A DNA stretch of 64,000 nt from Acetobacter sp. 46_36 (lineage in GTDB: Bacteria > Pseudomonadota > Alphaproteobacteria > RF32 > CAG-239), in the NCBI GenBank assembly GCA_001917135.1, contig MNTT01000015.1, positions 260,222-324,221 on the forward strand, in the 5' to 3' direction. The position numbers were made by a program, and so were the translations under genes. The first letter of the stretch is position 1, and every line of letters starts with the position of its first letter. Shown here one piece after another: positions 10,046 through 63,969 of this stretch. The notes under the pieces are model-generated. The model was not told the DNA's origin, did not search any database, and was given only the letters and a program-made list of their open reading frames with translations.

Positions 10046-10050
10046 AAACA

Positions 10051-10068
10051 AGGGGCTGAAAAGCCCCT
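10051..10068. terminator. Bidirectional rho-independent terminator hairpin between convergent tyrS and cvpA
   Basis: AGGGGCT-GAAA-AGCCCCT: 7-bp GC-rich stem with a GAAA tetraloop, T-runs on both strands. Confidence 0.6.
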
Positions 10069-10114
10069 TTGACATATTCCTCCGCTAAACGATGCTTATA
10101 ATGTTTTCTAGCGG

Positions 10115-10903
10115 CTATTCTGCCGTAATGTCAATCAGCCGGTCTAAACTGTTGGTTTCTTTACTGTCGTATCCGGTGGATTCATTTTTCTTTGCAGTCG
10201 GTTTTTCGGCTGCTTTTTTCTTGTTGTTTTTTATTTCCGGCTTGACCAACAGTTCAAACATCTTGTCCATTTGTTCCTGATCGAGTTTGGAAGGAAGGCC
10301 GGTCGGTACCTTTTCTGTCGGCTTGGCGGTGGCTTTTTTGCTGTCGCTTTTTTCTTTTTTCTTCTTTGCGTCCGTGTCTGCTTTGTTTATATCTTCAACA
10401 GATTTCATCGTATTTTTGATAAAGTCTTCGGGCAGCATTTTTTCAATCATGTCAGAACAGGGCTCGGCCATCATAAAATACTGGGATTTTTTCAGAGAAC
10501 CGTCTTTCAGTTCTTCCGGTAGGACGATTTTGACAATCAGAAAGCAAAATCCCAAAATGAGTACCGCTCGCAAAAAGCCAAAAACCAATCCGAACAGCCT
10601 GTCCATAAAACTTAACGTGCTGGTACGTATCTTGGCAATCAGCTTGTCTGTGCCGATAATCCAAATGGCATAAAAAACTGCCATAATTAACAAAAATACC
10701 ACAAATTGTGCCATCAGTTTACTGGCGATAAACTGGTTCATCCACGGTGTTAACAATGGAGACAGATATACTGTCAGAACAACAAACAACGCCAGCCCTA
10801 GAATAGAAAGGACTTCTTTGACGAAACCGCGTATAAAGGCGACCAGCATTGATAAGGCAACGCCGATTAAAATGATGACATCAATATTATTTAACGGTTC
10901 CAT
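10115..10903 (-). CDS. cvpA: CvpA (colicin V production) family membrane protein with K/E-rich C-terminal tail
   Basis: Four TM helices in the N-terminal 160 aa typical of CvpA. C-terminal ~90 aa are lysine/glutamate-rich low complexity. Confidence 0.7.
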   Translation of the reverse strand: MEPLNNIDVIILIGVALSMLVAFIRGFVKEVLSILGLALFVVLTVYLSPLLTPWMNQFIASKLMAQFVVFLLIMAVFYAIWIIGTDKLIAKIRTSTLSFMDRLFGLVFGFLRAVLILGFCFLIVKIVLPEELKDGSLKKSQYFMMAEPCSDMIEKMLPEDFIKNTMKSVEDINKADTDAKKKKEKSDSKKATAKPTEKVPTGLPSKLDQEQMDKMFELLVKPEIKNNKKKAAEKPTAKKNESTGYDSKETNSLDRLIDITAE

Positions 10904-10917
10904 CTGTTTTAGCTCCT

Positions 10918-12294
10918 CTAACTAAATCTGGAAATCAGACGCTGAACATTGCCGATTTCATGATAAGACATATTGGCAATCAGCTTTTGTTTTTTGTCTT
11001 TATTAAATGAATTGGGGATAATAGCATTGGAAAAACCGAGTTTCTGCGCTTCTTTCAGGCGCAAAGTCGGCTGGCTGACTGCTCTGATTTCCCCGGACAA
11101 TCCGATTTCTCCGAAAACAACCATGTCAGCCGGAAGAGGTTTGTTTGTCATCGACGAAATGACTGCCATGGCAACAGCCAAATCAGCGGCCGGTTCGGTA
11201 ATTTTTAATCCTCCGGCAATGTTCAGATAAACATCGTGTGTACTGAAATTCATGCCGCAGCGCGCTTCCAAAACCGCTAAAATCATAGCCAGCCGGTTTG
11301 AATCCCAGCCGACCACAGCACGTTTTGCTCCAGCATATCCGCTGTTGCCGACCAAAGCCTGAATTTCTACCAGCAATGGGCGTGAACCTTCGATTCCGGC
11401 AAAAACGCACGAACCGGAAACACATCCCTGTCTTTCCGCCAAAAACAAGGCGGAAGGGTTTTCCACTTCGACAAGTCCGTTGTCCTGCATTTCAAAAACG
11501 CCGATTTCGTCAGTAGCACCGTATCTGTTTTTGACTGCACGCAAAATACGGAAGTGATGTCCCCTGTCGCCTTCAAAATAAAGCACCGTATCAACCATAT
11601 GTTCCAAAACGCGCGGTCCGGCAATAGAGCCTTGTTTAGTAACATGTCCGACCAGAAACAGCGTAAATCCCTTTTTCTTGGCAATTTTTATCAGTTCATA
11701 AGCTGCTGCCCGAACTTGGGCGACACTTCCCGGTGTCGATTCGACTTCGTCAATATACATTGTCTGAATCGAGTCGATTATAACCAAAGTCGGATTTTCT
11801 TTTTCCAAAGTTGCAATAATGTCTTTAACGCTGGTTGTGCTGGCCAGACGCACGGGGGCATCGGCTAACCCAAGACGTTTGGCACGAATTCGTACTTGGT
11901 CAATCGCCTCTTCGCCTGAAATATAAAAACAGCTGTTATCTTGTAATTTATTAGCCATTCCTGCGCAAATTTGCAGCAATAACGTTGATTTGCCGATTCC
12001 CGGGTCGCCGCCGACCAGAATAACTGACCCCGGTACCAATCCTCCGCCGGATACGCGGTTAATTTCGGAAAGGTTGGTAACCAGTCTTTTGTAGGTCTGG
12101 CTTTCGCCGTTCAGCGAAACAAAATCAATCTGGTTTCCCGGTTTTTTTGTGGAAATATTAGAAAATTCTTCGCTCGCTCTTTTTTCTTCGACAATTGTGT
12201 TCCACTCGCCGCAGGCATCGCATTTGCCCTGCCATTTGGGATATACGGCGCCACAGGACTGGCAGACATAATCAATGGTCGACTTTTTTGCCAT
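10918..12294 (-). CDS. radA: DNA repair protein RadA (Sms)
   Basis: N-terminal C4 zinc finger (CQSCGAVYPKWQGKCDACGEW), RecA-like Walker A GDPGIGKST, KNRYG motif, Lon-like C-terminal domain. Confidence 0.9.
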   Translation of the reverse strand: MAKKSTIDYVCQSCGAVYPKWQGKCDACGEWNTIVEEKRASEEFSNISTKKPGNQIDFVSLNGESQTYKRLVTNLSEINRVSGGGLVPGSVILVGGDPGIGKSTLLLQICAGMANKLQDNSCFYISGEEAIDQVRIRAKRLGLADAPVRLASTTSVKDIIATLEKENPTLVIIDSIQTMYIDEVESTPGSVAQVRAAAYELIKIAKKKGFTLFLVGHVTKQGSIAGPRVLEHMVDTVLYFEGDRGHHFRILRAVKNRYGATDEIGVFEMQDNGLVEVENPSALFLAERQGCVSGSCVFAGIEGSRPLLVEIQALVGNSGYAGAKRAVVGWDSNRLAMILAVLEARCGMNFSTHDVYLNIAGGLKITEPAADLAVAMAVISSMTNKPLPADMVVFGEIGLSGEIRAVSQPTLRLKEAQKLGFSNAIIPNSFNKDKKQKLIANMSYHEIGNVQRLISRFS

Positions 12295-12295
12295 A

Positions 12296-13063
12296 CTATT
12301 TCTCCACTTTTATCGGGCCTTTGGAAGAACCGTTGATAAACTGTCTGACATAGGGATTGGTTGTCTTATCTAGTTCTTTGACCGTACCGTACCAGATGAT
12401 TTTTCCTTCATACAGCATGGCTATTTTGTCGGCAATTTTTCTTGCCGATGCCATGTCATGCGTAATTGTCAATGTCGTAGCCCCTAAATCTTTGGCCGAT
12501 TCTATAATCAAATCGTTGATAACGTCCGCCATAATCGGATCAAGTCCGGTTGTCGGCTCGTCAAAAAAGATAATCTCGGGGCGGGTAATGACTGCCCGTG
12601 CCAACCCGACGCGTTTCTGCATGCCGCCGGAGAGTTCTGATGGATATAGGTCGGCAATGTCTTCTGTCAGCCCGACCTGGCGTAAAACTTTTATCGCCAC
12701 GATTTTAGCTTCTTTTTTGCTGAATCCTCTGTTTTGAATAAGGTCAAAGGCAACATTTTCCCATACTGTCAGGCTGTCAAACAATGCGCCGCCCTGAAAC
12801 AGCATTCCCATTTTACTGTGCATACTGTCGATAACGTCCGGATTCTCGTTGGCTATTTCTATGTCGTCAATTTCAATTGAACCGCTGTCGGGAATAAGCA
12901 GTCCCTGAATACACTTGATTAAGACCGATTTTCCTGTTCCCGAACCGCCGATGACAACCAGAGATTCTCCTTTGTATAAATCTAAGTCAACCCCATTCAG
13001 AACATGTTTTTTTCCGAAACTTTTGTGCAGGTCTCTTATTTTGATTTTTATTTCTTTTGCCAT
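12296..13063 (-). CDS. mlaF: ABC transporter ATP-binding protein, MlaF-like
   Basis: Walker A GGSGTGKS, signature LSGGMQKRVGLARA, Walker B IIFFDEPT. Immediately downstream of an MlaE-like permease. Confidence 0.8.
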   Translation of the reverse strand: MAKEIKIKIRDLHKSFGKKHVLNGVDLDLYKGESLVVIGGSGTGKSVLIKCIQGLLIPDSGSIEIDDIEIANENPDVIDSMHSKMGMLFQGGALFDSLTVWENVAFDLIQNRGFSKKEAKIVAIKVLRQVGLTEDIADLYPSELSGGMQKRVGLARAVITRPEIIFFDEPTTGLDPIMADVINDLIIESAKDLGATTLTITHDMASARKIADKIAMLYEGKIIWYGTVKELDKTTNPYVRQFINGSSKGPIKVEK

Positions 13064-15707: not shown

Positions 15708-17453
15708 TTAATCGTAAAGATTTGGTAAAATCTCTTCTTTTTTGCCTGTGTTTATTTTTTGTTTGTCTGCTTTTTTCAAAGCAGAGATAAAAGCAGTAGC
15801 ATCAAAAAAGGTTTCGTTATCCGAATATAAGAGCTGATTAAGCAGATGTAACTGTTGCGAAAAGCCTTCGCTGCCGGATTTTTCGGCAATGATATTAAAA
15901 TTGGCAATATTTTCATCGCCATATTTTACTTTAGCCCATTTCAGCAGAAATTTCTTAGCTGTTTTATAGTCTTTTCTTTTTATAGCTCTGATAACCTCGT
16001 CACGATATATGCGGGCATGATTTTTTCTGCGGCGCATTAACATCAAAAAGGCAAAAGCAAAAAGAACAAAAGAGATAAGGGCATATAGATAAAAACTCTT
16101 ACTATTCTTCGGAAGAAATGGAGGCTCGTTTTTTTTCTGCTGCGGCAGAGAATTGATATTATCTTTGCCTGTATTATGTGCAGAAATTGCAGGAAGCAAA
16201 GGTGTTGTTTTTTCTTCAGTCTGTTCTTCAGGGAGGTTTGTATTCGGGGCAATGTCAATAACTTCTGCAGGAAGCGTTGTTTTTTCAAACAATCCGCTGT
16301 TTACATTAAACCATTCGATTTCCTGCTGGGGAAGTTTAAATTTTCCTGCCTTTTCGGGAATATAAACAACATTGATGGTTGCAGTTGTAACAAGTTGTCC
16401 GTCAACGGCAGACATGCTTGTTTCCGGTTTTTCCGGATACTGCTTAAAACCTTCTATGTCAGGAAATTGTAAAGCTGGAAACATGTCTTCGGGAAGTCCT
16501 GCTGCCGTTATGGTTATTTTTCGGCTTAAAGCTTCTCCCGCTTTAAATTGAGTTTGTGAAGACCATTCAGCCTGCATTGTCAGATTGCTCAAGGGAAGCC
16601 ATACTCCTGAAAATCCGCTTGGTTTAGGTTTAATGGTAATATTTTGCGGTTTGGTTCTCATGCGGACAGGAACTTTTTGCCCGAAAGCGTTGCGAAAATC
16701 GACGCCAAAAGTCATCAGGTCATCTTGAAAATCAGGAAATCCGAAATCAACGTTTTTAATATAAAAGCCATTGAATAAAAACTGCGGAACGGCAATTTTG
16801 CCGCTTTTAAGGGGAAATGCAGCAAAAACATAAGTGAGGACATTCATGTTTTTTCCGTTTATAACATCTTTTTTGATGAAAGGCTTGTTGGAAAGAGGCG
16901 TAATAGTCCAGTTTTTTTGCGTTTCATCGCTGATGTCAAGAGAACTGCCCTGCAGTCCCAGACTGTCATAAATCGTAACCCAAACGGTCAACTGTTGCTG
17001 AACATAAGGCGTTTCCGGACTGAATGTCTGTTCGATTTGGAAATACGGCGAATTGGAATTTTCCTTGCTGTCGGGAACAAAAGCGATATTTGAAACTTCT
17101 TTTACTTCAACTTCGGCATAATTTGAACTCAATCCGCCGAGCGTAATCGGTTTTATGGTAATTTTTCCTGTTTTAAGCGGTTTTAAGCCAATCGTCCACC
17201 TTTTGGTTTGTGTCAATGTTCCGTTAATATAATTTATTTGTCGGGCGGCATAATTGGAAACAATCTGAAAATCTTGTTGCAATGCACTTAAATCGGGATT
17301 TTCATCACTGTTACCGTTATAATCAATAGTCAAATTTAGGGTATCGCCCTCCGACATAGCGTTCTTGTCCAAATTAATGTTTATTTCTGCCGCATGAACG
17401 TGGAAAGCAAATAAACAGCCAAAGAAAAAAGTAAACAGGTTAAATATTTTCAT
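15708..17453 (-). CDS. batD: BatD-like protein (Bat aerotolerance-operon family), signal peptide + C-terminal TM
   Basis: Secreted 581-aa protein ending in a TM segment and a cytoplasmic tail. Last gene of a batA/batB-batC/batD-like cluster with overlapping stops/starts. Confidence 0.6.
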   Translation of the reverse strand: MKIFNLFTFFFGCLFAFHVHAAEININLDKNAMSEGDTLNLTIDYNGNSDENPDLSALQQDFQIVSNYAARQINYINGTLTQTKRWTIGLKPLKTGKITIKPITLGGLSSNYAEVEVKEVSNIAFVPDSKENSNSPYFQIEQTFSPETPYVQQQLTVWVTIYDSLGLQGSSLDISDETQKNWTITPLSNKPFIKKDVINGKNMNVLTYVFAAFPLKSGKIAVPQFLFNGFYIKNVDFGFPDFQDDLMTFGVDFRNAFGQKVPVRMRTKPQNITIKPKPSGFSGVWLPLSNLTMQAEWSSQTQFKAGEALSRKITITAAGLPEDMFPALQFPDIEGFKQYPEKPETSMSAVDGQLVTTATINVVYIPEKAGKFKLPQQEIEWFNVNSGLFEKTTLPAEVIDIAPNTNLPEEQTEEKTTPLLPAISAHNTGKDNINSLPQQKKNEPPFLPKNSKSFYLYALISFVLFAFAFLMLMRRRKNHARIYRDEVIRAIKRKDYKTAKKFLLKWAKVKYGDENIANFNIIAEKSGSEGFSQQLHLLNQLLYSDNETFFDATAFISALKKADKQKINTGKKEEILPNLYD

Positions 17454-19374
17454 CTCTATATCTGTCCTTTACATATTCTTTTTTTATAAATTCACGCAGT
17501 AACCCTCCGGGATCTTCAGGGATTTCCCGATATTGCCTCTGCATCATGATTGCCTCACCGTCATATTGCTCATTTTCGTTTCCCTGTTGAGCCCTGACCA
17601 GATTGACGGACTGTTCCTCTTGTTGCCTTTCTGTTCCGTTATTATCGTTTCCTGGAGTATTTCTGCTCTGGGCTTCGTCCTCTCCCCCAAGAGTGGCCTC
17701 AGCCGGCTGTTGCTTATTTTCACTGTTTTTTTGAGAACTGGTTTTATCGCTTTTTTCAGAATCCGTCTGTGTTTTTTGCTGTTGTTCGTCAGTATTCGTT
17801 TGCGCGTTTCTGTTTTCTTCTTCTGTTTTGGAGGCGGTAGAATTGCCCTGTTCCGTTTTAGGAGAGGCTTCCGGTGTGTTTTTATCGTTTTGCTGTGATT
17901 GGCTTTGACGCTGTCCGTTTTGGCCGGTTTGATTTTGGGAAGACTGTTTTTGCTGCTCCTGCTTCTCTTTATTGTTTTGCGGCGATGGATTGTTATTTGA
18001 ACTTTGGTCTTGTCTGGGTTTCTGTTCTTGCGCATCGTTTGTAGAAGGATTTTGCTGTTTTTGATTATCGCCGCACTCAAGAACGGATGGGTCTTGTTTT
18101 GCTTTTTCAAATAATTCATTTATAACTGTAAGATTATATTCGGCATCACTGTTTTTTGCATCAGCCTCAAGCGCTTTGGCAAAAGCTTCTTTTGCTTCAT
18201 TATATTTGCACATTTTTGTCAGAATGACGCCTTGGTTATAAAAAGAAAGGCTGCTGTTGGATTTCTGAAATTCTTTTAAGGCATCTTCAGGCCTGCCCTG
18301 TTTGTAAAGGGTTGCTCCTATCCAGTCCGTGTTCTTAAAAAACTTGAGAGCCTGTTCATATTGCCCTTTTTGAAACAGTCTGAGGCCTTCCTGATCATTA
18401 TTCAGAAAAAATCCGGCATAAGCCTGCAACGGAAACAACAATAAAACAAGAACAATCATTCCCCGCCGGAAAAACATCAAAGTGCAAAACAGGGGGATAA
18501 ACAACAGATAATATCCGTAATCTTCAAAATCAGAACGCATATTTTGGCTGCGTTTAATTCTTTCTTCGTTAATTTTTGTGATTTCATTGACAAGTTTTTG
18601 CGTATTTGCACTTCTAACGCTTAAATAGACGCCGTTTCCGGTATCTGCCAAAACTTTGAGCTTTTCGTTTCCTGAAAATGATGTATCAATAACGTGAACT
18701 TTGTAATTAAGGGCAGATGCTTTTTTGACGTGTTGTAATGCCAAGTCAAACCGCTGCCCGACGTCGGAAGTAAATAAAATAATGCTGCCCTGCGCATAAC
18801 CTGCGGCTTTAAATCGTTCAATTGCCAAATCAACAGCCCGGTCAAGCCGGTCGCCGTTGTCCGGAACAATGTCCGGTCTGATTTGCGGCAGAAGGTTTTT
18901 TAATAATTTGACATCGTCAGCAATCGGCGTAATGACATACGGTTCCTCCGAATATACTTCCAGGCCGAACTGCCCCTGCGGAATGTGTTCTGCCAAATCG
19001 GAAATCATAAATTTAGCCCGGTCAAGTCTGGAAGGCGTGATATCCGTAAGTTGCATATCCTGCGCCAGACTGAGGACAAACATATTCGGATTTTCCACGG
19101 CAAGGGAAGGGATTTCCGTTTTTTTCCATGCCGGCCCGGCAGCCGCAATGGCCGCCACGGCCAATCCCGTATAAATGAGTTTTTTTACGGAAAAATGCCT
19201 TTGCCCGCTATTGCTGACCAAAAGAAAATTTAACAAATTTTTATCACAAACATCTGCCCACGACGAAGCATTTCCACCTGTTTTTAATTTCTTAAAAAAC
19301 AAAAGCAGAGGAAGCAGCAGAAAAACCAGCAGCCATGGGCGCAAAAAATGAAAATTATGGAATAAATCGTTCAT
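17440..19374 (-). CDS. BatB/BatC-like fusion: N-terminal TM + von Willebrand A domain + TM + TPR repeats + ~230 aa Q/N/S/E/K-rich low-complexity tail
   Basis: vWA-like region (DLSRTQ-type motifs, LFTSDVGQ), TPR-like stretch (YEQALKFFKN...AKEAFAKALEADAKN). The C-terminal half is almost all Q, N, S, E, K, T. Confidence 0.6.
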   Translation of the reverse strand: MNDLFHNFHFLRPWLLVFLLLPLLLFFKKLKTGGNASSWADVCDKNLLNFLLVSNSGQRHFSVKKLIYTGLAVAAIAAAGPAWKKTEIPSLAVENPNMFVLSLAQDMQLTDITPSRLDRAKFMISDLAEHIPQGQFGLEVYSEEPYVITPIADDVKLLKNLLPQIRPDIVPDNGDRLDRAVDLAIERFKAAGYAQGSIILFTSDVGQRFDLALQHVKKASALNYKVHVIDTSFSGNEKLKVLADTGNGVYLSVRSANTQKLVNEITKINEERIKRSQNMRSDFEDYGYYLLFIPLFCTLMFFRRGMIVLVLLLFPLQAYAGFFLNNDQEGLRLFQKGQYEQALKFFKNTDWIGATLYKQGRPEDALKEFQKSNSSLSFYNQGVILTKMCKYNEAKEAFAKALEADAKNSDAEYNLTVINELFEKAKQDPSVLECGDNQKQQNPSTNDAQEQKPRQDQSSNNNPSPQNNKEKQEQQKQSSQNQTGQNGQRQSQSQQNDKNTPEASPKTEQGNSTASKTEEENRNAQTNTDEQQQKTQTDSEKSDKTSSQKNSENKQQPAEATLGGEDEAQSRNTPGNDNNGTERQQEEQSVNLVRAQQGNENEQYDGEAIMMQRQYREIPEDPGGLLREFIKKEYVKDRYRDENI

Positions 19375-20387
19375 TTCAGGTATCTCCCCGGCAAAAACAA
19401 CAGAAACAATGCCAAAATAAGGGCAAAAGTCAAAGGAATATAAAACAAGTCTTTTTTCTCCTGCACGATATTGCCCTCGCTTTTAGCCGGCTCCAACTGG
19501 TCAATTTTTGTATATATTTCAGCCAGCGAGTTTACGTCTGTTGCTCGAAAATAGTTTCCTTTTGTTTTTTGAGCCAGCTCCTTCAGGCTTTTTTCATCGA
19601 GTTCGCCATTGCCGAGTCCAAACAGTGAGCCGAGAAAGTTACGGTCGGAACCGACGCCGACGGTATATATTTTTATTCCCTCTTTTTCTGCCAGGCCGAT
19701 GGCTTGTGCCATGCTTAGGGAACCGTCGTTATTTTCTCCGTCCGTGAGCAAAATGATAACTTTATTGTTTTTTTCTTTTTCTTCCCGCAGATTTTTTAAT
19801 GCCAGACCCAGAGCATCGCCGATAGAAGTCGAATTGCCGGCCATACCTGCATCAGCATTATTCAGAATTTCTGCAACGGCATTTTTGTCAAAGGTAAGCG
19901 GAGACTGTACATAAGCGCGTGTTCCAAAAAGAATTAACCCAAGCCGGTCTTCCGTTCTTTTTTGCACAAAAGAGCCGACAACAGCTTTTACGGCTGTCAG
20001 CCTGTCAATCCTTTGGGTTCGGGACAAATCCGGTTGCAGCATTGACGGTGATATGTCTATAACGAGCATAATATCTCTGTTTTCAGCCTTAAGACGGTAT
20101 GGTTCGCCGACAAGTTGAGGACGTGCGGCAGCAATAACAAGCAGCACCCATAAAGAAAAAAGATAAAGATATTTAACGGAAAGCCAAGCTCTGCTTCCCA
20201 AAGCCGAAAATGCCGTTTGTTCAGATTTTGCCTGAATATATTTGATATCTTTTAAAAAGGGAACTTTTAATGCATCGCCGTGTACACCCCTGGCTTTGGG
20301 AAACAGAAAAAAAACGGCGAAAGGAAACAGCAGCAACCAAAAAAATTGCGGATATTCAAAAGTGGTCATAGATTTTCCCCTATCCAT
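19371..20387 (-). CDS. batA: BatA-like von Willebrand A domain membrane protein
   Basis: Two N-terminal TMs, vWA MIDAS motif (LVIDISPSM...DGENNDG), C-terminal TM. Confidence 0.7.
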   Translation of the reverse strand: MDRGKSMTTFEYPQFFWLLLFPFAVFFLFPKARGVHGDALKVPFLKDIKYIQAKSEQTAFSALGSRAWLSVKYLYLFSLWVLLVIAAARPQLVGEPYRLKAENRDIMLVIDISPSMLQPDLSRTQRIDRLTAVKAVVGSFVQKRTEDRLGLILFGTRAYVQSPLTFDKNAVAEILNNADAGMAGNSTSIGDALGLALKNLREEKEKNNKVIILLTDGENNDGSLSMAQAIGLAEKEGIKIYTVGVGSDRNFLGSLFGLGNGELDEKSLKELAQKTKGNYFRATDVNSLAEIYTKIDQLEPAKSEGNIVQEKKDLFYIPLTFALILALFLLFLPGRYLK

Positions 20388-37469: not shown

Positions 37470-37865
37470 CCAAGGTGGTTGGATAGCTGCGCCGGGATTT
37501 CTTCCGGTGAGGAAAGTCCGAGCGTCATGGAAACGGGGCACCGGATAACGTCCGGCTGGAGAAATCTAAGGGAAAGTGCCACAGAAAATTACCGCCAAAA
37601 TTATTTTGGTAAGGTTGAAAAGGCGAGGTAAGAGCTCACCGCAAAGATAGTAATATCCTTTGGCAAGGCAAACCCTGCCCGACGCAAGACCAAATTAGGA
37701 GGGCGGCTTTAAGCCGTTACATGGGGCGTTTCCACCCTGCTCCAGAGGTAGGTCGCTCGAACCGAATGGCGACATTCGGTCCAGATGAATAGCTATCGCT
37801 TTGAATCTTTGCCTTCGGGTAAAGCAAATGACAAGTACAGAACTCGGCTTACAGACCACCTTTGA
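37470..37865 (+). ncRNA. rnpB: RNase P RNA (bacterial type A)
   Basis: Conserved GGAAAGTCCG(A/G)GC (P4 5' strand), ACGGGGCACCGGATAACGTCCGGC, GTGCCACAGAAAAT, AGGTAAGAGCTCACC... and a P1 helix of CAAGGTGGT (5') with ACCACCTTG (3'). Preceded by an AT-rich promoter region. Confidence 0.8.
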
Positions 37866-37884
37866 TTTTTTATGGGAGAGAATA

Positions 37885-55984: not shown

Positions 55985-56290
55985 ATGATGTCAAACGTTA
56001 AAATAGCCAAATATATTGCCATATTGCTGGGTGCCTGTATCGTTTTGTGCACTTATTTTGTGTTTTTGAAAATCCTGAATAAGAAAACGGGTATTTCCGG
56101 TGTTCCGGTTTCCACCGAAATAGTGCTGAAAGTTCCTGAAAATGCCGAAGTAAAAGATGTCAGGATAGCCGAGGGAAAAATTTATTTTTTAATGGCATCG
56201 CCTTATGAAGAGAGTTTAGTTATCGTTGACGAAAATGCCCGGCAGGAGATTTTGAAAATTGTTCTGAAAAAGGAGAAAGCCCATGAGTAA
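55985..56290 (+). CDS. Small single-TM protein, first gene of the coupling-protein operon
   Basis: 101 aa, one N-terminal TM (IAILLGACIVLCTYFVFL), AAGGG RBS. No recognisable family. Confidence 0.5.
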   Translation: MMSNVKIAKYIAILLGACIVLCTYFVFLKILNKKTGISGVPVSTEIVLKVPENAEVKDVRIAEGKIYFLMASPYEESLVIVDENARQEILKIVLKKEKAHE

Positions 56291-57380
56291 TGATGATTCT
56301 CTTGATGCCTTTTTGACTGCGGATATGCCGGCGGAGGAAAAGAAAAATAACAAAGACACAAGTTTGGAAGATGAATTTGCCAAGCTTTTGAATGATTTTA
56401 TAAATCAGGATAAACCGGCCGCAAAACCAGATAATAAAAAAACGGAAGATAGTCTGGACAGTTTTCTTGAAAGTTCGGGCAGCGGTCTTGACAGCTTCTT
56501 GACTTCGCCGGTTGTTCCGTCCGAAAACACACCGGCCGCACAGCCGCAGCAGACATCTTTCAATGCGGAATCTGTGGAAAATGCCGCACAGCCGACAGAG
56601 GTGGAGAATTTGTCCGGTCTCGAAGTTCAGTCTGTATTTGCCGCTCCCGAAACCGCGCCGGAAAATATTCAGGCCGACGATACTGCCGCAAATAGGCTGA
56701 AACAGGAAGAGCAGGAATTAGCGCGTGCGGTTGCCAATTTTCAGGATGGCATAGTTGCAATGGCTGACAAAAAAAATCTTAAAGTACCCGATACCGATTA
56801 CAAAGAAGATATGCTGTATCCGAACTATAAGCCCAGTATTGGCAAAAAAATTGCCCAATATCTGCTGGCATGCTGGGATATTATGAATAAATATGATCCT
56901 GAAAATATGAAACGGCTCTCCAAAGATGCCGGAGATGAAGAATATCTCGCTTTTGCCGAAACGCTGAACGATACGGATATGCAGCTTGCCATAATATCGT
57001 ACGTTGAAATTCTTATAAATCTGGAAATTTGCGAGGTCAGCTATGAGCAAAAAAAAGAAATTTTGCAAAAAAATCGGATAAAGCGGGAATTGTATGAAGA
57101 ATATATGGAACTTCAGGAACGAAAAGCCCTGTTTATCAAAAAATTGAAAGAAAAAGATTTTCCGGTAGATGCGGAGCGGCTGATAGGAAATTACTTTCGG
57201 GTTGCACAAAAAGATCCCGACGGCTCGTTTAATGCTTTGGTAAAGAATCCGGCTATGTTTTCTCCGATAGAATTTGAAAAAATCCGGCCCAAATTTTTCG
57301 GATTAATAAAAGTAACGCCCGAAGACGGAATAAAAGCAAATCAAAAAATCGGGCATTTTATAAAAAAACTTAAAGTTTAA
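56283..57380 (+). CDS. Acidic protein: disordered N-terminal half with 3x SLDxFL motif, predicted helical C-terminal domain
   Basis: AAGGAG RBS; start overlaps the previous stop by 8 nt. DSLDAFL / DSLDSFL / GLDSFL tandem motif. No recognisable family. Confidence 0.6.
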   Translation: MSNDDSLDAFLTADMPAEEKKNNKDTSLEDEFAKLLNDFINQDKPAAKPDNKKTEDSLDSFLESSGSGLDSFLTSPVVPSENTPAAQPQQTSFNAESVENAAQPTEVENLSGLEVQSVFAAPETAPENIQADDTAANRLKQEEQELARAVANFQDGIVAMADKKNLKVPDTDYKEDMLYPNYKPSIGKKIAQYLLACWDIMNKYDPENMKRLSKDAGDEEYLAFAETLNDTDMQLAIISYVEILINLEICEVSYEQKKEILQKNRIKRELYEEYMELQERKALFIKKLKEKDFPVDAERLIGNYFRVAQKDPDGSFNALVKNPAMFSPIEFEKIRPKFFGLIKVTPEDGIKANQKIGHFIKKLKV

Positions 57381-57471
57381 TAAAATTTGCCTGATAGCGG
57401 AACGGTTTAAAGTAGACAACCTGCGGTTTTTATGCTAATATAACATAAAAGCATAAAAATCGGAGGCAAAA

Positions 57472-59103
57472 ATGGCTGAGCAATCCCAAATAAACAAATT
57501 GGACCGGATACTAAAGCAAAATATAGAAGATATGGAAAAAGCTACAGAGGCTAATTTGATTAGTGTTCCTCCCCGAGCCGGGGCAGAAACCGGAAATGGC
57601 AGTGCGCCTGCCGGGCAGCCGCCGGAAACCGGGACGCCGTCTCCGTCAGCAGGAACTGATAATACGGGAACGGGCGGAAACGATACAGGGGACAGCAGCA
57701 GTAACAGTCAGGACGCTCCTGCACAGCCTGAAAACGGACGGGATACACCGGAACCGCGTCGTCCCGAAAAAATTCCCGATGGTATCTCGCGGGCGTATGA
57801 TGATGTGTCTTTAGGCGAATTTGATACCAAAGCCCCGAAAGAAAAAACGGAAACCAAGGGTTCAAAACCTAAAGGCGGCATAACGCCCCCCAAACGCGAC
57901 CGCGGTGGAACCAAGGGAAAATCCGGCGGCGATGATATTATGGAAGTTTTTTGGAATGACTGTATTATGGCTTTTTATGCCTGGACAATAGATACGGTTG
58001 TCGACAATACGCTGGATTTTGCCGAATGGGTACTGTTTTCGCCATACAAATCCGGCGGCAGTACGGTTGAAACTACGACTGAAAAAAAGCCGAAAACCAT
58101 ATATATGTTGGGCGAAGAATTGTATAAAAGCCGTATGGAAAACTTTGCCAAAGAAAAAGATAAGCTGATAGAATTAAACGAAAATCTGGAAAAAAGCGCA
58201 AACGGAATCCAGCCTGAATGGAGACTTTGGGGAAAAATGCCGGCATTTTATCCCAAATTGCAGCAAATTCATGCCAAGGCAATAGAAAATCCCGACTCTG
58301 AAGAAGCCAAATTTATGCATAAGTACGGTTTGGGAAGCAGTGCCGAAACCGTCAAAGGGCGTTTTGCCAAAGAGGAAAAACTGTTTATGCTCGCAGTTCG
58401 TTTGGCTACGGTAGAAGAAGTCGTCAGCGATGCCAAAAATACGATTTCTCCTGAATTTTCCCAAAAATTGGCGGATTTGGATGAAACGTTGAAAAAGAAT
58501 AATTGCAGCAAGCAGGATATAACGGAAAAAATCAATGCTCTGTCTGAAGAAGCAGGCGGAGAATACGCTGTTTGCAAAGGTGTTTCTGATAAAATAGAAG
58601 AGATAAAGACCCTTCTTGAAAAAGATGGCGATATTTCAAAAGTAAAAAAAGATATCGTAAAAAAAGCCAAGGATATTCGTAAGATTTCCGAGGGTGCCGG
58701 CCACGATGAAGACATCATAAAAGAACATATCAGAAAACGCGGCCAGGAAAAATATAAGAGGCTTATGGAAAATATTGATAAAATTCATGAAGCTTATGTG
58801 GATGACCCGGAAAAGGTCAAGGAAACTATTAAAGAATACCTTAGTTCTGTAAATAATGCCGGCAAGGAGGCCAAGCAAGCGACGGACAAAGTCATTGAAG
58901 AAGGCCTGAAAGGCAAAATAAATGCCGGGGAAAAACGTAAAAACGCCAAAGCATCCGTAGAAAAAATTGATACGGCGATAAATGATTTTATGCTTGAAGG
59001 CGAAAAAATATCATCAAAAGCTCCGGCAGCCCAAAAAGATGAATTCGTATTAACGGAAAAACAATTTTCTAAAGCTATAAAAGATTATCGGTTGGGTCGC
59101 TAA
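57472..59103 (+). CDS. 543-aa protein: G/T/P/S-rich disordered N-region, then a long K/E-rich predicted helical domain
   Basis: GGAGG RBS; coding-like composition. No recognisable family. Confidence 0.6.
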   Translation: MAEQSQINKLDRILKQNIEDMEKATEANLISVPPRAGAETGNGSAPAGQPPETGTPSPSAGTDNTGTGGNDTGDSSSNSQDAPAQPENGRDTPEPRRPEKIPDGISRAYDDVSLGEFDTKAPKEKTETKGSKPKGGITPPKRDRGGTKGKSGGDDIMEVFWNDCIMAFYAWTIDTVVDNTLDFAEWVLFSPYKSGGSTVETTTEKKPKTIYMLGEELYKSRMENFAKEKDKLIELNENLEKSANGIQPEWRLWGKMPAFYPKLQQIHAKAIENPDSEEAKFMHKYGLGSSAETVKGRFAKEEKLFMLAVRLATVEEVVSDAKNTISPEFSQKLADLDETLKKNNCSKQDITEKINALSEEAGGEYAVCKGVSDKIEEIKTLLEKDGDISKVKKDIVKKAKDIRKISEGAGHDEDIIKEHIRKRGQEKYKRLMENIDKIHEAYVDDPEKVKETIKEYLSSVNNAGKEAKQATDKVIEEGLKGKINAGEKRKNAKASVEKIDTAINDFMLEGEKISSKAPAAQKDEFVLTEKQFSKAIKDYRLGR

Positions 59104-59114
59104 GGAGAAGATAA

Positions 59115-59606
59115 ATGGCAAAAGTGGAAAAATTGATAAAATTTTTTACGGTTTGTGCAGTTGTTTTTGTCGTTTTGGGGTATATTTGCCGGGAATTGTT
59201 TAAATTTATCTGGAATTTTGATATTTTCAATCGGGAATCTTACCGGATTTTGTATGATTACTGGGAAAACGGCGGCGTATTTAATACGTTTCGGGATTGC
59301 AGCTTGGGGCTGTTCTTGTTTTTAATGCCCGTAATATGGCTGGTTTTGAGTTATAAGCTGTATAAGTACGGGCTGGTGAAGTTTTTGCTTAATCCGTTGG
59401 TTAAACTGTACCGCCGTATAACCCGTCCTAAAACTATGGAAGTTGAACACGTTTCAATCAAAAATCTTGGCGGGAAGGATAAAACGCTGGATGAGATTAT
59501 CGCCGAAAAAGTGGAAAAGCAGGGAGGGAACAAAAGTGCCGGACATGCCTCGCAAAATCTGCGCCGGCAGATAGCTGCAAAAATTGAAGAAAATGAAAAA
59601 CAATAA
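59115..59606 (+). CDS. 2-TM membrane protein, paralogous in its N-terminus to the next gene
   Basis: AAGGAG RBS; TMs FFTVCAVVFVVLGYIC and LGLFLFLMPVIWLVLSY. Shared motif WNFDIF...ESYRILYDYWENGG. Confidence 0.6.
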   Translation: MAKVEKLIKFFTVCAVVFVVLGYICRELFKFIWNFDIFNRESYRILYDYWENGGVFNTFRDCSLGLFLFLMPVIWLVLSYKLYKYGLVKFLLNPLVKLYRRITRPKTMEVEHVSIKNLGGKDKTLDEIIAEKVEKQGGNKSAGHASQNLRRQIAAKIEENEKQ

Positions 59607-59660
59607 TTACTTGTTAACCAATCAATGGATATAATGGGAAAATAAAAGCCGGAGAAGAAC

Positions 59661-60986
59661 TTGAAACCGCTGATAATAATACTAAAAACACTGATAGTCG
59701 GCTATTTATGGAGTATTGTCTTCATAGATGGCATCAGGGTGGTTTTGCTTATAAACTGGCATTTTGACATCTTTTTATCCGAACACTGGCGCCTTTTGAG
59801 TTATAAGTGGAACAGCGGAGCGCCTATGACAAATTCAGAACTGGGCTTTTTTATGATTATAGCCAGCTCGATTCCGCTGTGGCTTGCCGGCTGGGTAGGG
59901 TTATGCCTTGTAAAGTGGGAGCGCCTGCTGAAAAAAGTATTCTTAAGCCCTCTGTATCTTTTCCGCAAAATAACCTTAAAAACCAAACCTCCGGTAGTTG
60001 TTAAGAAAAAGTCCATTGCGGAAGAAACAAAAGTTGTTAAAAAGACGCCGATAATCAAAAAAGCCCCGGTCAAACGTCCGCCGCTGCCGTCTGCGACTTT
60101 AATGCAGTCAAATATAAACAGTAATTTGATGGCATCGCCTGCCGGACGTACTTCTTCCTATACACCGGGCAAAAAAGAGCCGGAAGCGCCGATTAACCAT
60201 GCTCTGTTTAATTTTGACGATGATGATTTTGACTTGGATTTTGATTTTGAAAAGAAAGATAAGAAGCCGGATATCGATGATTCCATTCCTTCGGCGCTTA
60301 TGGTTGACGAGCCGAAAACGATTGAAACCGTTCCTGCGGCGGTTGTTGAAGAAAAGCCTAAAAACACGCCGGCACCTTCAAAAAACCAGGAAAAATCATC
60401 ACCGCAGAATAATAAAAAAGACAATGCCCAGCCTAAAAACAAATCCGCAGATATGTCTGCCGCTCAGGCTATGCCGATTAAGGAATCCCATACTCCGGTT
60501 TTGGATGTTCTTAATCAAAAGGGATTTGACGTCATCCCTTCGGCGATTATCAAAAATACGACAATTGATTACATCGGCGTTTCCAAAAATCAACTCTTTT
60601 TATGCCTGATTGATAAAGAAGCCGGCGACTGGCTGGCGGATGAAGAAAAGTTCAATGATGAAGAGCCGTTATGGTTTTCGGAAAGCAGCCACCGCATTTC
60701 TCCGGTACGAAAGATTGATGTGGCCAGAGATATTTTAAAGACCAAACTGGCTGTCGGAGATATGAATTTTGAAATCATCGCGTATGTTATCATTCAGGCC
60801 GGCAATATTATTAACGCCGAGGATATGTTTGAAATCTGGAACAATATGAACGTAAATGTAACGCGTATAAACCGGGGCAGCCCGAAAGAAATCCGTCTGT
60901 TTTCAAAGTCGTTGGATAATTGTGAGGAAAAAACGGATAAAAATACGCTTGAAAAACTTAAGAAACTTATTCGCAGTCTGGCATAA
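59661..60986 (+). CDS. 2-TM membrane protein with long K/P-rich and acidic-aromatic linker and ~190-aa C-terminal globular domain; TTG start
   Basis: GGAGAAG RBS with TTG at 59661. N-terminus paralogous to the preceding gene (WHFDIF...EHWRLLSYKWNSG). FNFDDDDFDLDFDFE patch. Confidence 0.55.
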   Translation: MKPLIIILKTLIVGYLWSIVFIDGIRVVLLINWHFDIFLSEHWRLLSYKWNSGAPMTNSELGFFMIIASSIPLWLAGWVGLCLVKWERLLKKVFLSPLYLFRKITLKTKPPVVVKKKSIAEETKVVKKTPIIKKAPVKRPPLPSATLMQSNINSNLMASPAGRTSSYTPGKKEPEAPINHALFNFDDDDFDLDFDFEKKDKKPDIDDSIPSALMVDEPKTIETVPAAVVEEKPKNTPAPSKNQEKSSPQNNKKDNAQPKNKSADMSAAQAMPIKESHTPVLDVLNQKGFDVIPSAIIKNTTIDYIGVSKNQLFLCLIDKEAGDWLADEEKFNDEEPLWFSESSHRISPVRKIDVARDILKTKLAVGDMNFEIIAYVIIQAGNIINAEDMFEIWNNMNVNVTRINRGSPKEIRLFSKSLDNCEEKTDKNTLEKLKKLIRSLA

Positions 60987-61010: not shown

Positions 61011-63230
61011 ATGGCAAAAGAAAGAGGAAAAGAATGGGAAGAATATGACAACGCCGTCCGGTGGATGACAATAACGTTCGCCATCGCGGTCGTTGTTACG
61101 GTTGTTTTCATGTATATCGCCCCGATTCTGGCATTTTTTATGCAAAACGGTATTTCCAAAAAGAGTGTGGAAATAGCAGGTTTGTTTTTGAAAAAGTCTT
61201 TTGCAGACTTTGGCTTTTTGTGGGACTGGTATCTGAAATGGTTCAAAAAGGTTTATCGTTACAGCGGCGAGTTTAAAATAAGTTTATGGCCGCCGATTCT
61301 GCCGTTTATTTCTTTTCCGCTGATTTTGATTATCGGCGGCATAAAGTGCCCGTATAAATTCCAATCGAATATTCACGGGTCGGCGCACATTGCTACTTTG
61401 CGCGATATTGAAAAAATGCCGCTGCTCGGATTTGACGGTTTTTGTATGGTGGTCGGCAAGTTTCAGGGTAAAATGCTGAAACTGAAAGAAACGCTGTCAA
61501 CCCTGTGTTGTGCGCCTCCGGGAACCGGTAAAACTGCCGGTGTCGTTATTCCGACAATTTTTAATTCCGAGGGGCTTAGCATTATCGTAAACGACCCGAA
61601 ACCAGAGTTGTGCTACCAGACGACGGGTGCGAGAAACAAGGTCGGCCCTGTATTTGTCATCAACTGGGGTAAGGAAGACAATCCGGCAACTGGAGAATAC
61701 TATCCGAGTTGGAACCCGCTGTCTCCGGGAGCGCTCCCGGCACCGGGGCCGGAACGCGACCTGTATGTCGATTCTATGTGCAACACGCTGGTGGAAGACC
61801 CCAAGGGCGGCGCTGACCCGCACTGGTCAAAAACCGGTCGAAGCGCGCTCTGCGGCTTTATCCATTTTATCTCTTCCAAATGCGAACGGGCTTTAGCTAA
61901 TGAACGCTTTATACAGAAAATTTATGAAGGCTCAATGACAGCCGAAGACAAAGCCGAGTTGATAAAGCTTTACGACGAAATGAGCATCGGCGGTTTGCGG
62001 GCTAATGCCGCGCGCGCAATTCAGGACTTGCAGAACGGAAATCTGACGATTGAAAATTATCTGCCTGTCGGAACCTGGAACCTACTGCCGGAAAAATGGA
62101 TTAACCACGAGCCCTGTCTGGCGATGATTCTGGAATGGATTACTTCGTCCCAGATTGAACAGAGCAATGAAATTAAACGCCGCCTGGAAGAAGGCGACCA
62201 AATGGCCGCTATGGCAGACCCGATGCGCGATTTGCTGGACGCCGCGGTGGAAGAAGCAAATAACTATGGGTATTCCCGCCGCTGCGTAACCGAATTGAGC
62301 GCTTTGAGCGCCATGCCGGATAAAGAGCGGGGATCCGTCCTTTCTACCGGTCTTACCGGTATCGGTATTTTCAAAAACTCGGCAGTTGTGGCCCGTACCA
62401 GCTTTTCCGATATTCAGTTTAAAGATTTGCGTGGTATGAAGGATCCGGTAACCGGCGAATGGAAGCCGATTTCCGTTTACCTTTCGGTTAACCAGACGGA
62501 CGCTCAGGCGTTGAACCCGATTAGCGCGACATTTGTTGACCTGATGAGCGCTTATCTTATTTCAAATCCGCCGAATTCTGTTAACCGTACTGACGGTAAA
62601 ATGGGGCCTTTCCCGACTTTGTTTGTGCTTGACGAGTTCCCGCAGATGCCGAAGCTGAAAGCGGTTATTGACGGGCCGGCGGTCGGCCGCGGACAAAAAG
62701 TTTCGTATCTGCTGATTGGGCAAGACTTGGGTCAGATTTCCGGAAAATACGGTAAAGACGACTTGGAAACAGTTATATCTACAACTGCCTGCAAGGTTAT
62801 TCTGTCACAGAACAACGAACAGACGGCACAGCGTTTTTCCAAAATGATTGGCAATAAAACGGTGCAGACTACGTCCTACAGCCGAAACGAAGGCAGCCTT
62901 GCCAAAGAATATAATCCGTTTGCCAAAAACGTCAGCTATCAGTTGCAGGGCGTTTCAGCCATCAGTGCCAATGACTTGTTGAGTTTGCCGATGCTGAAAC
63001 AGGTCGTGCTGATGCAAGGCTCGATTGATACGCCGATTATGGCAGACGCGCCGCGTTTTTATCTGGACAAGAAAATGCTGGCAATGTCAAAGCTCCCGCA
63101 TTCTCCGTGGGTTCCGGACTGGATTGTTGCTCAGCGTACTGATGAAAATGAGGATATCCTGTCTAAATTAGGTATAGACTATGATCCGAATGCAGAAGAA
63201 GAGGAAGGTTTTGAAGAAGACGAAGCTTAA
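61011..63230 (+). CDS. Type IV secretion/conjugation coupling protein (VirD4/TraG/TraD family ATPase), 739 aa with acidic C-terminal tail
   Basis: Two N-terminal TMs, IHGSAHIATLRD (TraG/VirD4 HGSARWA-like motif), Walker A APPGTGKTAG, Walker B LFVLDEFPQM, C-terminus ...DPNAEEEEGFEEDEA. Confidence 0.85.
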   Translation: MAKERGKEWEEYDNAVRWMTITFAIAVVVTVVFMYIAPILAFFMQNGISKKSVEIAGLFLKKSFADFGFLWDWYLKWFKKVYRYSGEFKISLWPPILPFISFPLILIIGGIKCPYKFQSNIHGSAHIATLRDIEKMPLLGFDGFCMVVGKFQGKMLKLKETLSTLCCAPPGTGKTAGVVIPTIFNSEGLSIIVNDPKPELCYQTTGARNKVGPVFVINWGKEDNPATGEYYPSWNPLSPGALPAPGPERDLYVDSMCNTLVEDPKGGADPHWSKTGRSALCGFIHFISSKCERALANERFIQKIYEGSMTAEDKAELIKLYDEMSIGGLRANAARAIQDLQNGNLTIENYLPVGTWNLLPEKWINHEPCLAMILEWITSSQIEQSNEIKRRLEEGDQMAAMADPMRDLLDAAVEEANNYGYSRRCVTELSALSAMPDKERGSVLSTGLTGIGIFKNSAVVARTSFSDIQFKDLRGMKDPVTGEWKPISVYLSVNQTDAQALNPISATFVDLMSAYLISNPPNSVNRTDGKMGPFPTLFVLDEFPQMPKLKAVIDGPAVGRGQKVSYLLIGQDLGQISGKYGKDDLETVISTTACKVILSQNNEQTAQRFSKMIGNKTVQTTSYSRNEGSLAKEYNPFAKNVSYQLQGVSAISANDLLSLPMLKQVVLMQGSIDTPIMADAPRFYLDKKMLAMSKLPHSPWVPDWIVAQRTDENEDILSKLGIDYDPNAEEEEGFEEDEA

Positions 63231-63246
63231 ATCTGCCGCTGCGGAA

Positions 63247-63969
63247 ATGAGAAGTTTTTCTCTGTGGTGCGTTTTGAAGAGCAGTATAAAATTTATACTG
63301 CTCTTCAAGCGTACATTTTTATTGTGGTGTTTGGCAAATTTTGCTTTTCTGATTGTCTTTAGGCAGATTCCAAATGGCTGGACCAATTCGCTGAGCATCC
63401 TGTGGCTTGTTGCCTACTATGTGTTTTGGTGCGTGTTTGTCCGTCATATTCAGCAGCATCCGCCTTATTTTTCCCTAATTCGTATTTTTAACGGTTTGAT
63501 TCCCGCCAGCAAAATTATGTTTATTAACATTATAATCTATTTGGTTTTGGTAATTGCTCCATACATTCCATTATTTATGGGTTTTAGGGAGAAATATCTG
63601 GAATTTTTTGAGCAATATATGGCTGTTTTGCAAAGCCATAATTCCCTGCCGGGGAAAACGCTGTTTTATGTATTAATGCTGCTGTTGTCTCCGTATACGA
63701 TAAGCCGGCCGTATCTTGCCTGGTTATCATCGCTGATAGGAAAAAGCCGCTCAATCATAGATGCTTACAAAAAGACACAAGGCAACTATTGGAATTTTGT
63801 CTTTTGTGCAGTTGTTATGAGCGGGCTGTTTGCTCTGTCATATTTTATTGACGTTACTTATAAAACAAGCTCTCTGATTTTTGTAATGTCAGTCCTGCCG
63901 ATATTTTTCAATGTCGTCTTTATTGATATTTACAAAGTATTTTACAAGCGTAGAAAAAATATCAAATAA
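63247..63969 (+). CDS. Polytopic membrane protein of unknown function, last gene of the operon
   Basis: About 6 hydrophobic segments. Start ambiguous: the track ORF starts at 63181 and overlaps the T4CP gene by 50 nt; MRSFSLW at 63247 avoids the overlap. Confidence 0.5.
   Translation: MRSFSLWCVLKSSIKFILLFKRTFLLWCLANFAFLIVFRQIPNGWTNSLSILWLVAYYVFWCVFVRHIQQHPPYFSLIRIFNGLIPASKIMFINIIIYLVLVIAPYIPLFMGFREKYLEFFEQYMAVLQSHNSLPGKTLFYVLMLLLSPYTISRPYLAWLSSLIGKSRSIIDAYKKTQGNYWNFVFCAVVMSGLFALSYFIDVTYKTSSLIFVMSVLPIFFNVVFIDIYKVFYKRRKNIK

Follow-up and report, generated by a model that had tools for sequence, protein, structure and literature searches.

Coupling proteins are the substrate gate of type IV secretion and are usually encoded together with the secretion channel or on mobile elements. 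A 64,000-nucleotide stretch of the Acetobacter sp. 46_36 genome (contig MNTT01000015.1, positions 260,222 to 324,221; hereafter, the window) raises the question of what such a protein does away from that setting, as it carries, at the end of an operon, a gene that a sequence-only reading of this DNA had placed in the VirD4/TraG/TraD P-loop family. We find that this type IV coupling protein (T4CP) is a genuine, intact and strongly constrained VirD4-class ATPase, its ATPase activity itself being predicted from sequence and model, and that it belongs to a vertically inherited, chromosomal clade of uncultured gut and rumen Alphaproteobacteria that separated once from the virB operon.

An intact VirD4-class ATPase

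The T4CP gene comprises the following features:

61011 to 63230, plus strand: T4CP of 739 aa, VirD4/TraG class, encoded at the end of the operon (Pfam and NCBIfam profiles, AlphaFold2, Foldseek)
61050 to 61331, plus strand: N-terminal membrane anchor, with hydrophobic segments at aa 14-32 and 89-107 and a loop of ~55 aa between them (hydropathy, long model helices)
61515 to 61541, plus strand: Walker A motif PPGTGKTAG, aa 169-177, with K174 invariant in 60 relatives
61872 to 62069, plus strand: three-helix insertion that marks the clade, within the all-alpha domain, aa 288-353 (alignment, AlphaFold2)
62625 to 62648, plus strand: Walker B motif VLDEFPQM, aa 539-546
63153 to 63227, plus strand: disordered acidic C-terminal tail with an embedded Phe, aa 715-739 (composition, homologue tails, AlphaFold2)

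The open reading frame (ORF) starts with ATG, has a GAGG motif 11 nt upstream of this codon, and encodes all four of the motifs quoted by the sequence-only reading, namely the two Walker motifs listed above, HGSAHIA (aa 122-128) and EEEEGFEEDEA (aa 729-739). Its product matches Pfam PF02534 (T4SS-DNA_transf) with 183.8 bits against a cut-off of 20.1, and further matches TraG-D_C (79.8 bits) and TrwB_AAD_bind (65.5 bits). The NCBIfam VirD4/TraG models score 90-147 bits and F-type TraD 30 bits, and the curated cut-offs of the VirD4/TraG models (250-728 bits) are reached neither for CD1115-type VirD4 (146.9 versus 250) nor for the VirD4 models PRK13897 and PRK13850 and IncP/Ti TraG (127.8/728, 109.8/674 and 90.2/681 bits). 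No match above cut-off was obtained to TraD either (TraD_Ftype, 30.5 versus 521; SXT_TraD, 25.3 versus 366). Because these scores lie far below the curated cut-offs, the protein matches none of the named equivalogs.

To place the protein structurally, we compared its sequence and its AlphaFold2 model (mean predicted local distance difference test [pLDDT] score 87.5, predicted template-modelling score 0.78, helical domain at ~aa 247-474) to known structures. A single-sequence phmmer search of PDB sequences returned no match, and a family profile matched Helicobacter pylori Cagbeta at 3e-12 and TrwB marginally, with no DotL chain at E<=1. Foldseek placed Cagbeta (8dol) at the top, with an E-value of 7.5e-20, followed by TrwB (1e9s/1e9r; E 5e-13, or about 1e-12, target-normalised TM-score 0.68-0.75), and retrieved VirB4 and HerA only near 1e-6, HerA-NurA and HerA-Sir2 being among the fold matches. 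The protein thus presents the PF02534 profile, a P-loop nucleotide-binding domain (NBD) with Walker A and B motifs, a transmembrane (TM) anchor, the all-alpha domain and the expected fold. Its class is VirD4/TraG, which sharpens the family placement of the sequence-only reading, and neither the TraD that the reading also named nor DotL.

The C-terminus had been described as strongly acidic, and this holds beyond chance and beyond this one protein. The last 15 residues include nine Asp or Glu and no Lys or Arg in a protein with 11.8% Asp and Glu, and every other 15-aa window has at most five (binomial P ~1e-5 per window, ~0.008 over all windows). Among the 120 closest homologues, all distinct tails are acidic and nearly always have an embedded Phe or Tyr, and the tail (aa 715-739) is predicted to be disordered (pLDDT <50). 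Since the tail is disordered and conserved, and accompanies the branch of the clade that is preceded by the partner gene g441 described below, it is plausible from sequence and model that it recruits partner proteins.

The all-alpha domain carries an insertion with the clade consensus E[QRK]AxANDYF...YEG..D.ED..LE.YY.M...NY.P.G.W, of which the first motif is degenerate in the window protein (ERALANERF). Its helices (aa 271-306, 311-324 and 330-341) are modelled with pLDDT >90. The segment corresponding to aa 256-353 measures 92-98 residues in context-verified clade members, compared to 35-42 in relatives following virB11, and the extra residues constitute a homologous insertion of ~55 aa. We considered insertion length as a strict marker of orphan genes and abandoned it, as P0129, a VirD4 linked to a type IV secretion system (T4SS), has a looser insertion at the same site, as does P0150. 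Because a T4SS-linked protein has such an insertion, the alignment indicates that the insertion probably predates the loss of virB linkage. P0129 itself (L102:4578-8087) is 1169 aa long and contains an intein (Pfam Hom_end_hint), with ~210 extra residues just before Walker A.

Genomic context of the coupling protein gene

The sequence-only reading had noted that no secretion apparatus adjoins the gene, and a wider search bears this out. We queried the window and related loci by tblastn with 21 VirB4/6/8/9/10/11 and secretin sequences drawn from related T4SS loci, a set that cross-detected seven of seven T4SS-linked control loci. The genetic association with a T4SS or relaxase that is usual for the family was not observed: there is no VirB4/6/8/9/10/11 gene in the window, none in the 10 kb beyond its end and none in 174 related loci, many of these belonging to identical or related species. 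Among the ORFs of the window, the ten largest all encode housekeeping proteins (RadA, RecN, iPGM, PGM, CtpA, an M23 peptidase, Bat/TPR proteins and an ABC-type system), and the window encodes RNase P RNA, with no tRNA found in it.

A vertically inherited clade separated once from virB operons

The 120 closest protein clusters are all at least 73% identical to the window T4CP and stem from uncultured gut Alphaproteobacteria that carry the labels 'Azospirillum sp. CAG:260', 'Acetobacter sp.' or 'Alphaproteobacteria bacterium', a source group that is probably GTDB order RF32. A clade-specific peptide pattern identified 450 confirmed relatives in a species-representative genome collection, the best 80 of which are gut and rumen metagenome-assembled genomes, including Candidatus Scatocola faecigallinarum, and in an assembly collection 5441 indexed blocks contain the identical protein. 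Between species, the T4CP is 70-76% identical, compared to 58-81% for RpoH and 53-68% for RluD at the same loci; since its conservation is comparable to that of RpoH, the T4CP evolves like a core gene. Two loci (L072 and L076) bear record titles of Lachnospiraceae and Lactobacillaceae but contain the alphaproteobacterial cassette at 70-71% identity, one of them on a contig of 829 kb, and are probably mislabelled or mis-binned.

We searched cluster representatives exhaustively, obtaining only 262 clusters at E<=1e-30, with full-length relatives as distant as 27% identity. Among those outside the clade, VirD4s encoded on Sphingosinicella, Erythrobacter, Microvirga and Thalassospira plasmids lie directly after virB8-9-10-11, and an Azospirillum p5 relative is on a plasmid typed as conjugative, MPF_T. 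The closest metagenomic outgroups (P0126, P0128 and P0129) likewise follow virB11, P0128 being part of a chromosomal T4SS carried by a gut contig of 534 kb. Seven of the eight nearest relatives outside the clade are found directly after virB11. Among clade members, P0121 (53% identity) has immediately upstream a g441 orthologue (E 4.5e-91) whose end overlaps the T4CP start, and P0125 (54%) lies beside rsmE and rluD with no partner upstream. P0124, P0134, P0135 and P0307 (33-39%) and P0199 (30%, from a group with a 'DDWWL..NPF' tail) each directly follow a pentapeptide-repeat gene, every one of these pairs in a different housekeeping neighbourhood. A DotL-like reading of the 'DDWWL..NPF' relatives was rejected, given their pentapeptide partner, their housekeeping context and the lack of support in NCBIfam and PDB searches.

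A bootstrapped neighbour-joining (NJ) tree, computed with corrected distances on an improved alignment from which the insertion columns had been removed, keeps every clade member apart from every T4SS-linked sequence in 161 of 200 replicates, unites the g441-type group in 180 and brings the pentapeptide-type groups together in 194. An initial NJ tree, rooted at the midpoint and computed from loosely trimmed columns, had nested the window clade among T4SS-linked genes and was dropped after alignment improvement and bootstrapping. Tight clustering of the ATPase core with canonical VirD4s, the outcome against which the sequence-only reading had wanted it checked, was thus not observed; the core falls in a separate clade with its own insertion. 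The window branch retains GTGKT and LDEFPQ, identical to the T4SS-linked outgroups, and because the nearest outside relatives are true VirD4s following virB11 in VirB operons, we infer that the clade ancestor worked with a VirB channel. Comparison of shared housekeeping genes between L101, the contig with the chromosomal T4SS, and the orphan genomes gave only partial ParE matches (50-62%).

The VirD4-class family is known, and this clade is an undescribed branch of it: our literature search found no description of a chromosomal VirD4 clade unlinked to a T4SS, nor of T4CP partners with NERD-fold or pentapeptide-repeat domains.

A conserved operon and its upstream genes

In 87 loci the gene order is rpoH and rluD on the minus strand, followed on the plus strand by g100, g365, a slot gene, g163, g441 and the T4CP. 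In the window, the operon contains, besides the T4CP gene:

55985 to 56290, plus strand: g100, 101 aa with one N-terminal TM segment (ORF, hydropathy; profile matches in 74 loci)
56283 to 57380, plus strand: g365, a soluble protein and candidate cargo or adaptor, found in 80-81 of 87 loci at 32-55% identity
57472 to 59103, plus strand: g543, the rapidly evolving gene in the slot, orthologous by position to a family present in 77 of 81 loci
59115 to 59606, plus strand: g163, a small inner-membrane protein with a TM hairpin as in g441 followed by a charged helix, found in 81-86 loci
59661 to 60986, plus strand: g441, immediate upstream partner of the T4CP, with a TM hairpin, a linker and a nuclease-fold C-terminal domain
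63273 to 63320, plus strand: intrinsic-terminator-like hairpin and U-tract with a 17-bp stem, 43 nt past the T4CP stop codon, marking the operon end

The junctions are an 8-nt overlap (between g100 and g365) followed by gaps of 91, 11, 54 and 24 nt. The terminator hairpin folds at -30.2 kcal/mol (z = -8.3), and none of 200 shuffled sequences folds as well. An ORF at 63181-63969 (plus strand) encoding a multi-TM protein, found in just 19 of 87 loci, contains this hairpin (63273-63309) in its first 130 nt; because so strong a hairpin falls there, its start is probably mis-called, and the ORF lies outside the functional unit. The downstream flank varies between species (ligA versus PBP5/MipZ). 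Between-species identity is far lower for the neighbours than for the T4CP (34-65% for g441, 20-32% for g163, and as listed for g365), yet, even though the upstream genes diverge two to three times faster, their order and tight spacing are maintained in about 150 loci. The suggestion that the neighbouring genes of the T4CP are candidate partners can therefore be narrowed: strict synteny supports it for 56283-60986, that is, for g365, the slot gene, g163 and above all g441, and the ORF at 63181-63969, past the terminator and in few loci, drops out.

None of the five upstream proteins of the window matches a Pfam or NCBIfam family. The first gene after the divergent rluD, g100, has an orthologue with a weak DUF6476 match, and its membership of the functional unit is uncertain. 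In the g365 protein, the N-terminal half is acidic and looks disordered, the C-terminal half is helical and conserved, and the chain ends in a basic tail, FIKKLKV, that is conserved too; although the protein is acidic overall, its last 30 aa have a mean net charge of +5.1, and no Pfam family recurs among 39 of its orthologues. The slot is always filled by a single ORF of 437-771 aa, belonging to one family in 77 of 81 loci, and no Pfam domain recurs in 39 orthologues of that family. The window representative, g543, has a low-complexity N-terminus and a long K/E-rich helical region, and is weakly linked to the slot family by an E-value of 0.009, a common DI[IM]..W..A..W motif and the same architecture. 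To BLAST this copy is unrecognisable as a member of that family, and it stands beside an ATPase as conserved as RpoH. The remaining small gene, g163, has two hydrophobic segments and is 32% identical to g441 over 77 aa by BLAST (E 1e-6), the two sharing a paralogous N-terminal domain.

The nuclease-fold partner and its pentapeptide-repeat alternative

The g441 protein begins with a TM hairpin (aa 1-106) whose loop, NW[HR]FDIF..W, is conserved between g441 and g163, and continues with a Lys-rich disordered linker, a conserved acidic-aromatic motif, HALFNFDDDDFDLDFDFE (about aa 180-197), and a highly conserved C-terminal domain. This last domain (aa 279-441, modelled mostly at pLDDT of about 85-92) has a restriction-endonuclease/NERD fold. 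NERD (PF08378) is the sole Pfam family that recurs among g441 orthologues (13 of 30 at E<=1, best E 3.4e-5), the window protein itself being unmatched, and the homologue P0474 has a precomputed PF08378 match. Three acidic residues, D303, D318 and E320, show little or no variation. Two of them belong to the motif D318-K319-E320, in which a Glu occupies the position of the canonical (D/E)xK lysine, and because of this replacement nuclease activity appears doubtful from the sequence.

The gene directly upstream of the T4CP is g441-like in all 87 loci of the first set. A second set of 87 loci, composed of 80 from a metagenome scan and seven distant clade loci, has a g441-like gene at this position in 61 cases, a pentapeptide-repeat gene in 14, another gene in six and an unscorable one in six. 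At L094, which lacks the other genes of the cassette, g441 still adjoins the T4CP. At L109-L111, the T4CP (about 9983-12325) is 780 aa long and has an extreme acidic tail (18 Asp or Glu among its final 25 residues); the 317-aa ORF upstream of it has no match to the g441 profile, and g365 is present.

In deep branches of the clade, the pentapeptide-repeat protein is a second, unrelated type of partner at the same position. Examples of 330-521 aa lie directly upstream of the T4CP at L088:8772-10001, L089:9006-9998, L090:8613-9998, L091:8428-9993 and L095:4963-6294, at 0-8 nt from the T4CP start in four loci and 82 nt in L095. These proteins are soluble, with long charged C-terminal regions and a net charge of +6.8 over the last 20 aa. 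One candidate rvh effector of Rickettsia is likewise pentapeptide-containing, a loose parallel (PMC11077975). The pentapeptide-type locus L088 also encodes Cas9 (RuvC_III/HNH) and Cas1 (L088:1-2444) ~8 kb upstream of the orphan T4CP, probably by coincidence.

Comparison with known systems

The closest known counterparts of the window T4CP are the VirD4s of VirB/VirD4 (type IVA, MPF_T) systems, such as those on Sphingosinicella, Erythrobacter and Microvirga plasmids, and H. pylori Cagbeta, with which it has in common PF02534, a two-TM anchor followed by NBD and all-alpha domain, and both Walker motifs, at 35-50% core identity to the nearest VirB/VirD4-type members. It differs from them in lying away from virB11 and other VirB genes, in its ~55-aa insertion and acidic tail, and in being a core chromosomal gene with its own partners that stays under all NCBIfam equivalog cut-offs.

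Coupling complexes assembled on C-terminal extensions of T4CPs include DotL-DotM-DotN-IcmSW-LvgA of Legionella and TraD-TraM of the F plasmid. As in these, the window T4CP has a disordered C-terminal tail and is encoded with small membrane proteins and soluble possible adaptors, which makes them a working analogy, but it bears no sequence relationship to either (30 versus 521 bits for TraD; no DotL chain) and its partners match no known adaptor family. The Cagbeta-CagZ pair (8dol), the best structural match to the T4CP model, is according to its entry title also a VirD4-class ATPase, regulated by a dedicated partner that acts next to it. In contrast to the present locus, however, CagZ is small and soluble and Cagbeta belongs to the cag T4SS island, whereas here the partner is a nuclease-fold membrane protein with no T4SS nearby.

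The HerA-NurA, HerA-Sir2 and HerA-DUF4297 modules resemble the locus in that an ATPase of the same, hexameric structural group is encoded beside a nuclease-fold protein. Unlike HerA, the window ATPase is clearly a T4CP (Foldseek E 7.5e-20 for Cagbeta versus about 1e-6 for HerA), membrane-anchored and vertically inherited, and fits no PADLOC model. Finally, MOB_C-type relaxases have a restriction-endonuclease fold, and TraI of the gonococcal DNA-secretion island is membrane-associated. Likened by description, they are a precedent for a DNA-processing protein with a PD-(D/E)xK fold or a membrane association beside a T4CP, but the g441 motif is non-canonical (D-K-E), and no oriT or T4SS was identified at the locus.

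Proposed role and alternative explanations

Our preferred reading, which we hold at a little under even confidence, is that the T4CP acts as receptor ATPase within a dedicated coupling complex, from which substrates would pass to a VirB channel whose genes lie elsewhere. The T4CP hexamer would reside in the inner membrane with g441 and g163, associated through their TM hairpins, and the NERD-like domain of g441 would be positioned close to where the ATPase opens towards the cytoplasm. The g365 and slot proteins would be cargo or adaptors engaged by the enlarged all-alpha domain and the acidic tail, and output would pass to a VirB-type channel encoded elsewhere in the genome.

Such a complex is consistent with the conserved tight operon, its short or overlapping junctions, the terminator after the T4CP and the dedicated upstream partner. 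The T4CP fold, its intact motifs, the purifying selection seen in its conservation and the VirB-linked ancestry likewise speak for it. The all-alpha domain is where known partners bind T4CPs, and the 8dol entry title refers to regulation of Cagbeta by CagZ. VirB/D4 substrates have positively charged C-terminal signals, which the basic tails of g365 and of the pentapeptide-repeat partners recall. Furthermore, a fast-evolving slot gene beside a slowly evolving ATPase is the pattern expected of an effector, and in this respect the slot protein looks effector-like.

Several observations weigh against the coupling-complex reading. The tblastn searches detected no VirB4/6/8/9/10/11 or secretin gene in the 64-kb window and no VirB gene within reach in the 174 clade loci, a search that covered the locus surroundings only, and contigs with the identical T4CP have ligA, infC, fba and glgP, with no T4SS gene, in the 10 kb past the window end. 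Pfam and NCBIfam scans, including g365 and slot-gene orthologues, revealed no relaxase or known adaptor family in the operon. No role in effector-type T4SSs is established for a membrane partner with a nuclease fold. In those deeper branches of the clade where the partner is a pentapeptide-repeat protein, the Walker B motif often reads DD and the Walker A glycines drift, which suggests from sequence an altered use of the ATPase there. Lastly, complex formation, the role of the tail, the cargo or adaptor roles, the distal channel and all protein-protein contacts are what we infer.

A rival explanation that we regard as unlikely but worth keeping in view is that the T4CP is a neo-functionalised hexameric motor of the inner membrane, independent of any T4SS and working with a membrane-tethered nuclease-fold protein or, in sister lineages, with a DNA-mimic-like pentapeptide-repeat protein. 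The clade would then have ceased to serve a VirB channel, and its bacteria might have none at all. The motor would act on DNA or another polymer, for example in DNA export or uptake across the inner membrane or in the processing of chromosomal or foreign DNA. Such a motor would account for the contrast between no VirB genes in 174 loci and seven of eight nearest outside relatives directly after virB11, for a monophyletic clade with its own all-alpha-domain insertion, for two DNA-flavoured partner types (PD-(D/E)xK/NERD fold and pentapeptide repeats), for a core-like gene at a fixed housekeeping locus beside rpoH and rluD, and for the change of DE to DD in the Walker B motif of deep branches. 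The T4CP moreover belongs structurally to the HerA/FtsK group, whose members are elsewhere paired with nucleases, as in the HerA-NurA and HerA-Sir2 fold matches. We know, however, of no T4CP of a diderm bacterium that works without a T4SS, the canonical lysine is replaced in g441, so that its nuclease activity is doubtful, and the operon has no outer-membrane component. The orphan context, for its part, discriminates poorly between this motor and a coupling complex serving a VirB channel, because a single ancestral separation from virB would leave all descendants unlinked.

The T4CP could also be a plain displaced virD4 serving a virB operon elsewhere, with the upstream genes as unrelated neighbours. 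The ATPase motifs are intact, and virB/virD4 genes are scattered in some Alphaproteobacteria, as in the rvh system of Rickettsiales. We nevertheless consider this improbable, since upstream order and spacing persist in about 150 loci despite faster divergence, g441 accompanies the T4CP gene at a locus that lacks the remainder of the cassette, the downstream flank varies while the cassette is constant, and the clade has its own insertion.

A module defending against phages or plasmids, of the type that pairs a translocase ATPase with a nuclease, might be suspected from an ATPase of the HerA/FtsK group adjoining a PD-(D/E)xK-fold protein and from the known occurrence of NERD domains in defence contexts; we consider it very improbable. 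PADLOC yielded no credible match to the operon proteins (mad8, E 0.0017, 16 bits; ZorA, E 0.005), PHROGs yielded no phage-family matches, and the fixed locus, vertical inheritance and housekeeping-level conservation in at least 450 matched species-representative stretches are unlike patchy defence islands. The isolation of the gene from any T4SS at the locus might likewise suggest that a conjugative element or T4SS was lost and left the gene behind in decay, but this is scarcely credible for a full-length ORF with intact motifs, present in hundreds of genomes at 70-76% identity and as an identical protein in 5441 assembly-collection blocks.

Other observations

The window contains a cluster of BatD and TPR/VWA (Bat-like aerotolerance) genes at 15708-20387 (minus strand) and a class A RNase P RNA at 37471-37867 (plus strand, 282.9 bits). 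Among the T4SS loci outside the clade, the chromosomal VirB/VirD4 cluster on the 534-kb gut contig has a secretin gene (PF00263) between virB9 and virD4 (L101:13410-14741, minus strand), and at L100:6011-7264 (plus strand) a 417-aa protein weakly similar to that secretin (E 2e-11) lies between virB9 and virB10. A secretin inside a type IVA cluster is unusual.

Implications

Taken together, these data describe a VirD4 lineage long kept as a slowly evolving core gene in abundant uncultured gut and rumen Alphaproteobacteria, with an insertion of its own and two DNA-flavoured types of partner. If the T4CP were a motor independent of a T4SS, it would be, as far as we know, the first VirD4-class protein with a housekeeping-like role outside type IV secretion; more generally, if no channel exists, the locus would demonstrate the recruitment of a coupling protein to a role other than secretion. 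If, as in our preferred reading, a VirB channel exists elsewhere in these genomes, the operon would provide a compact and tractable example of a type IVA dedicated adaptor or cargo complex, including candidate effectors of gut commensals.

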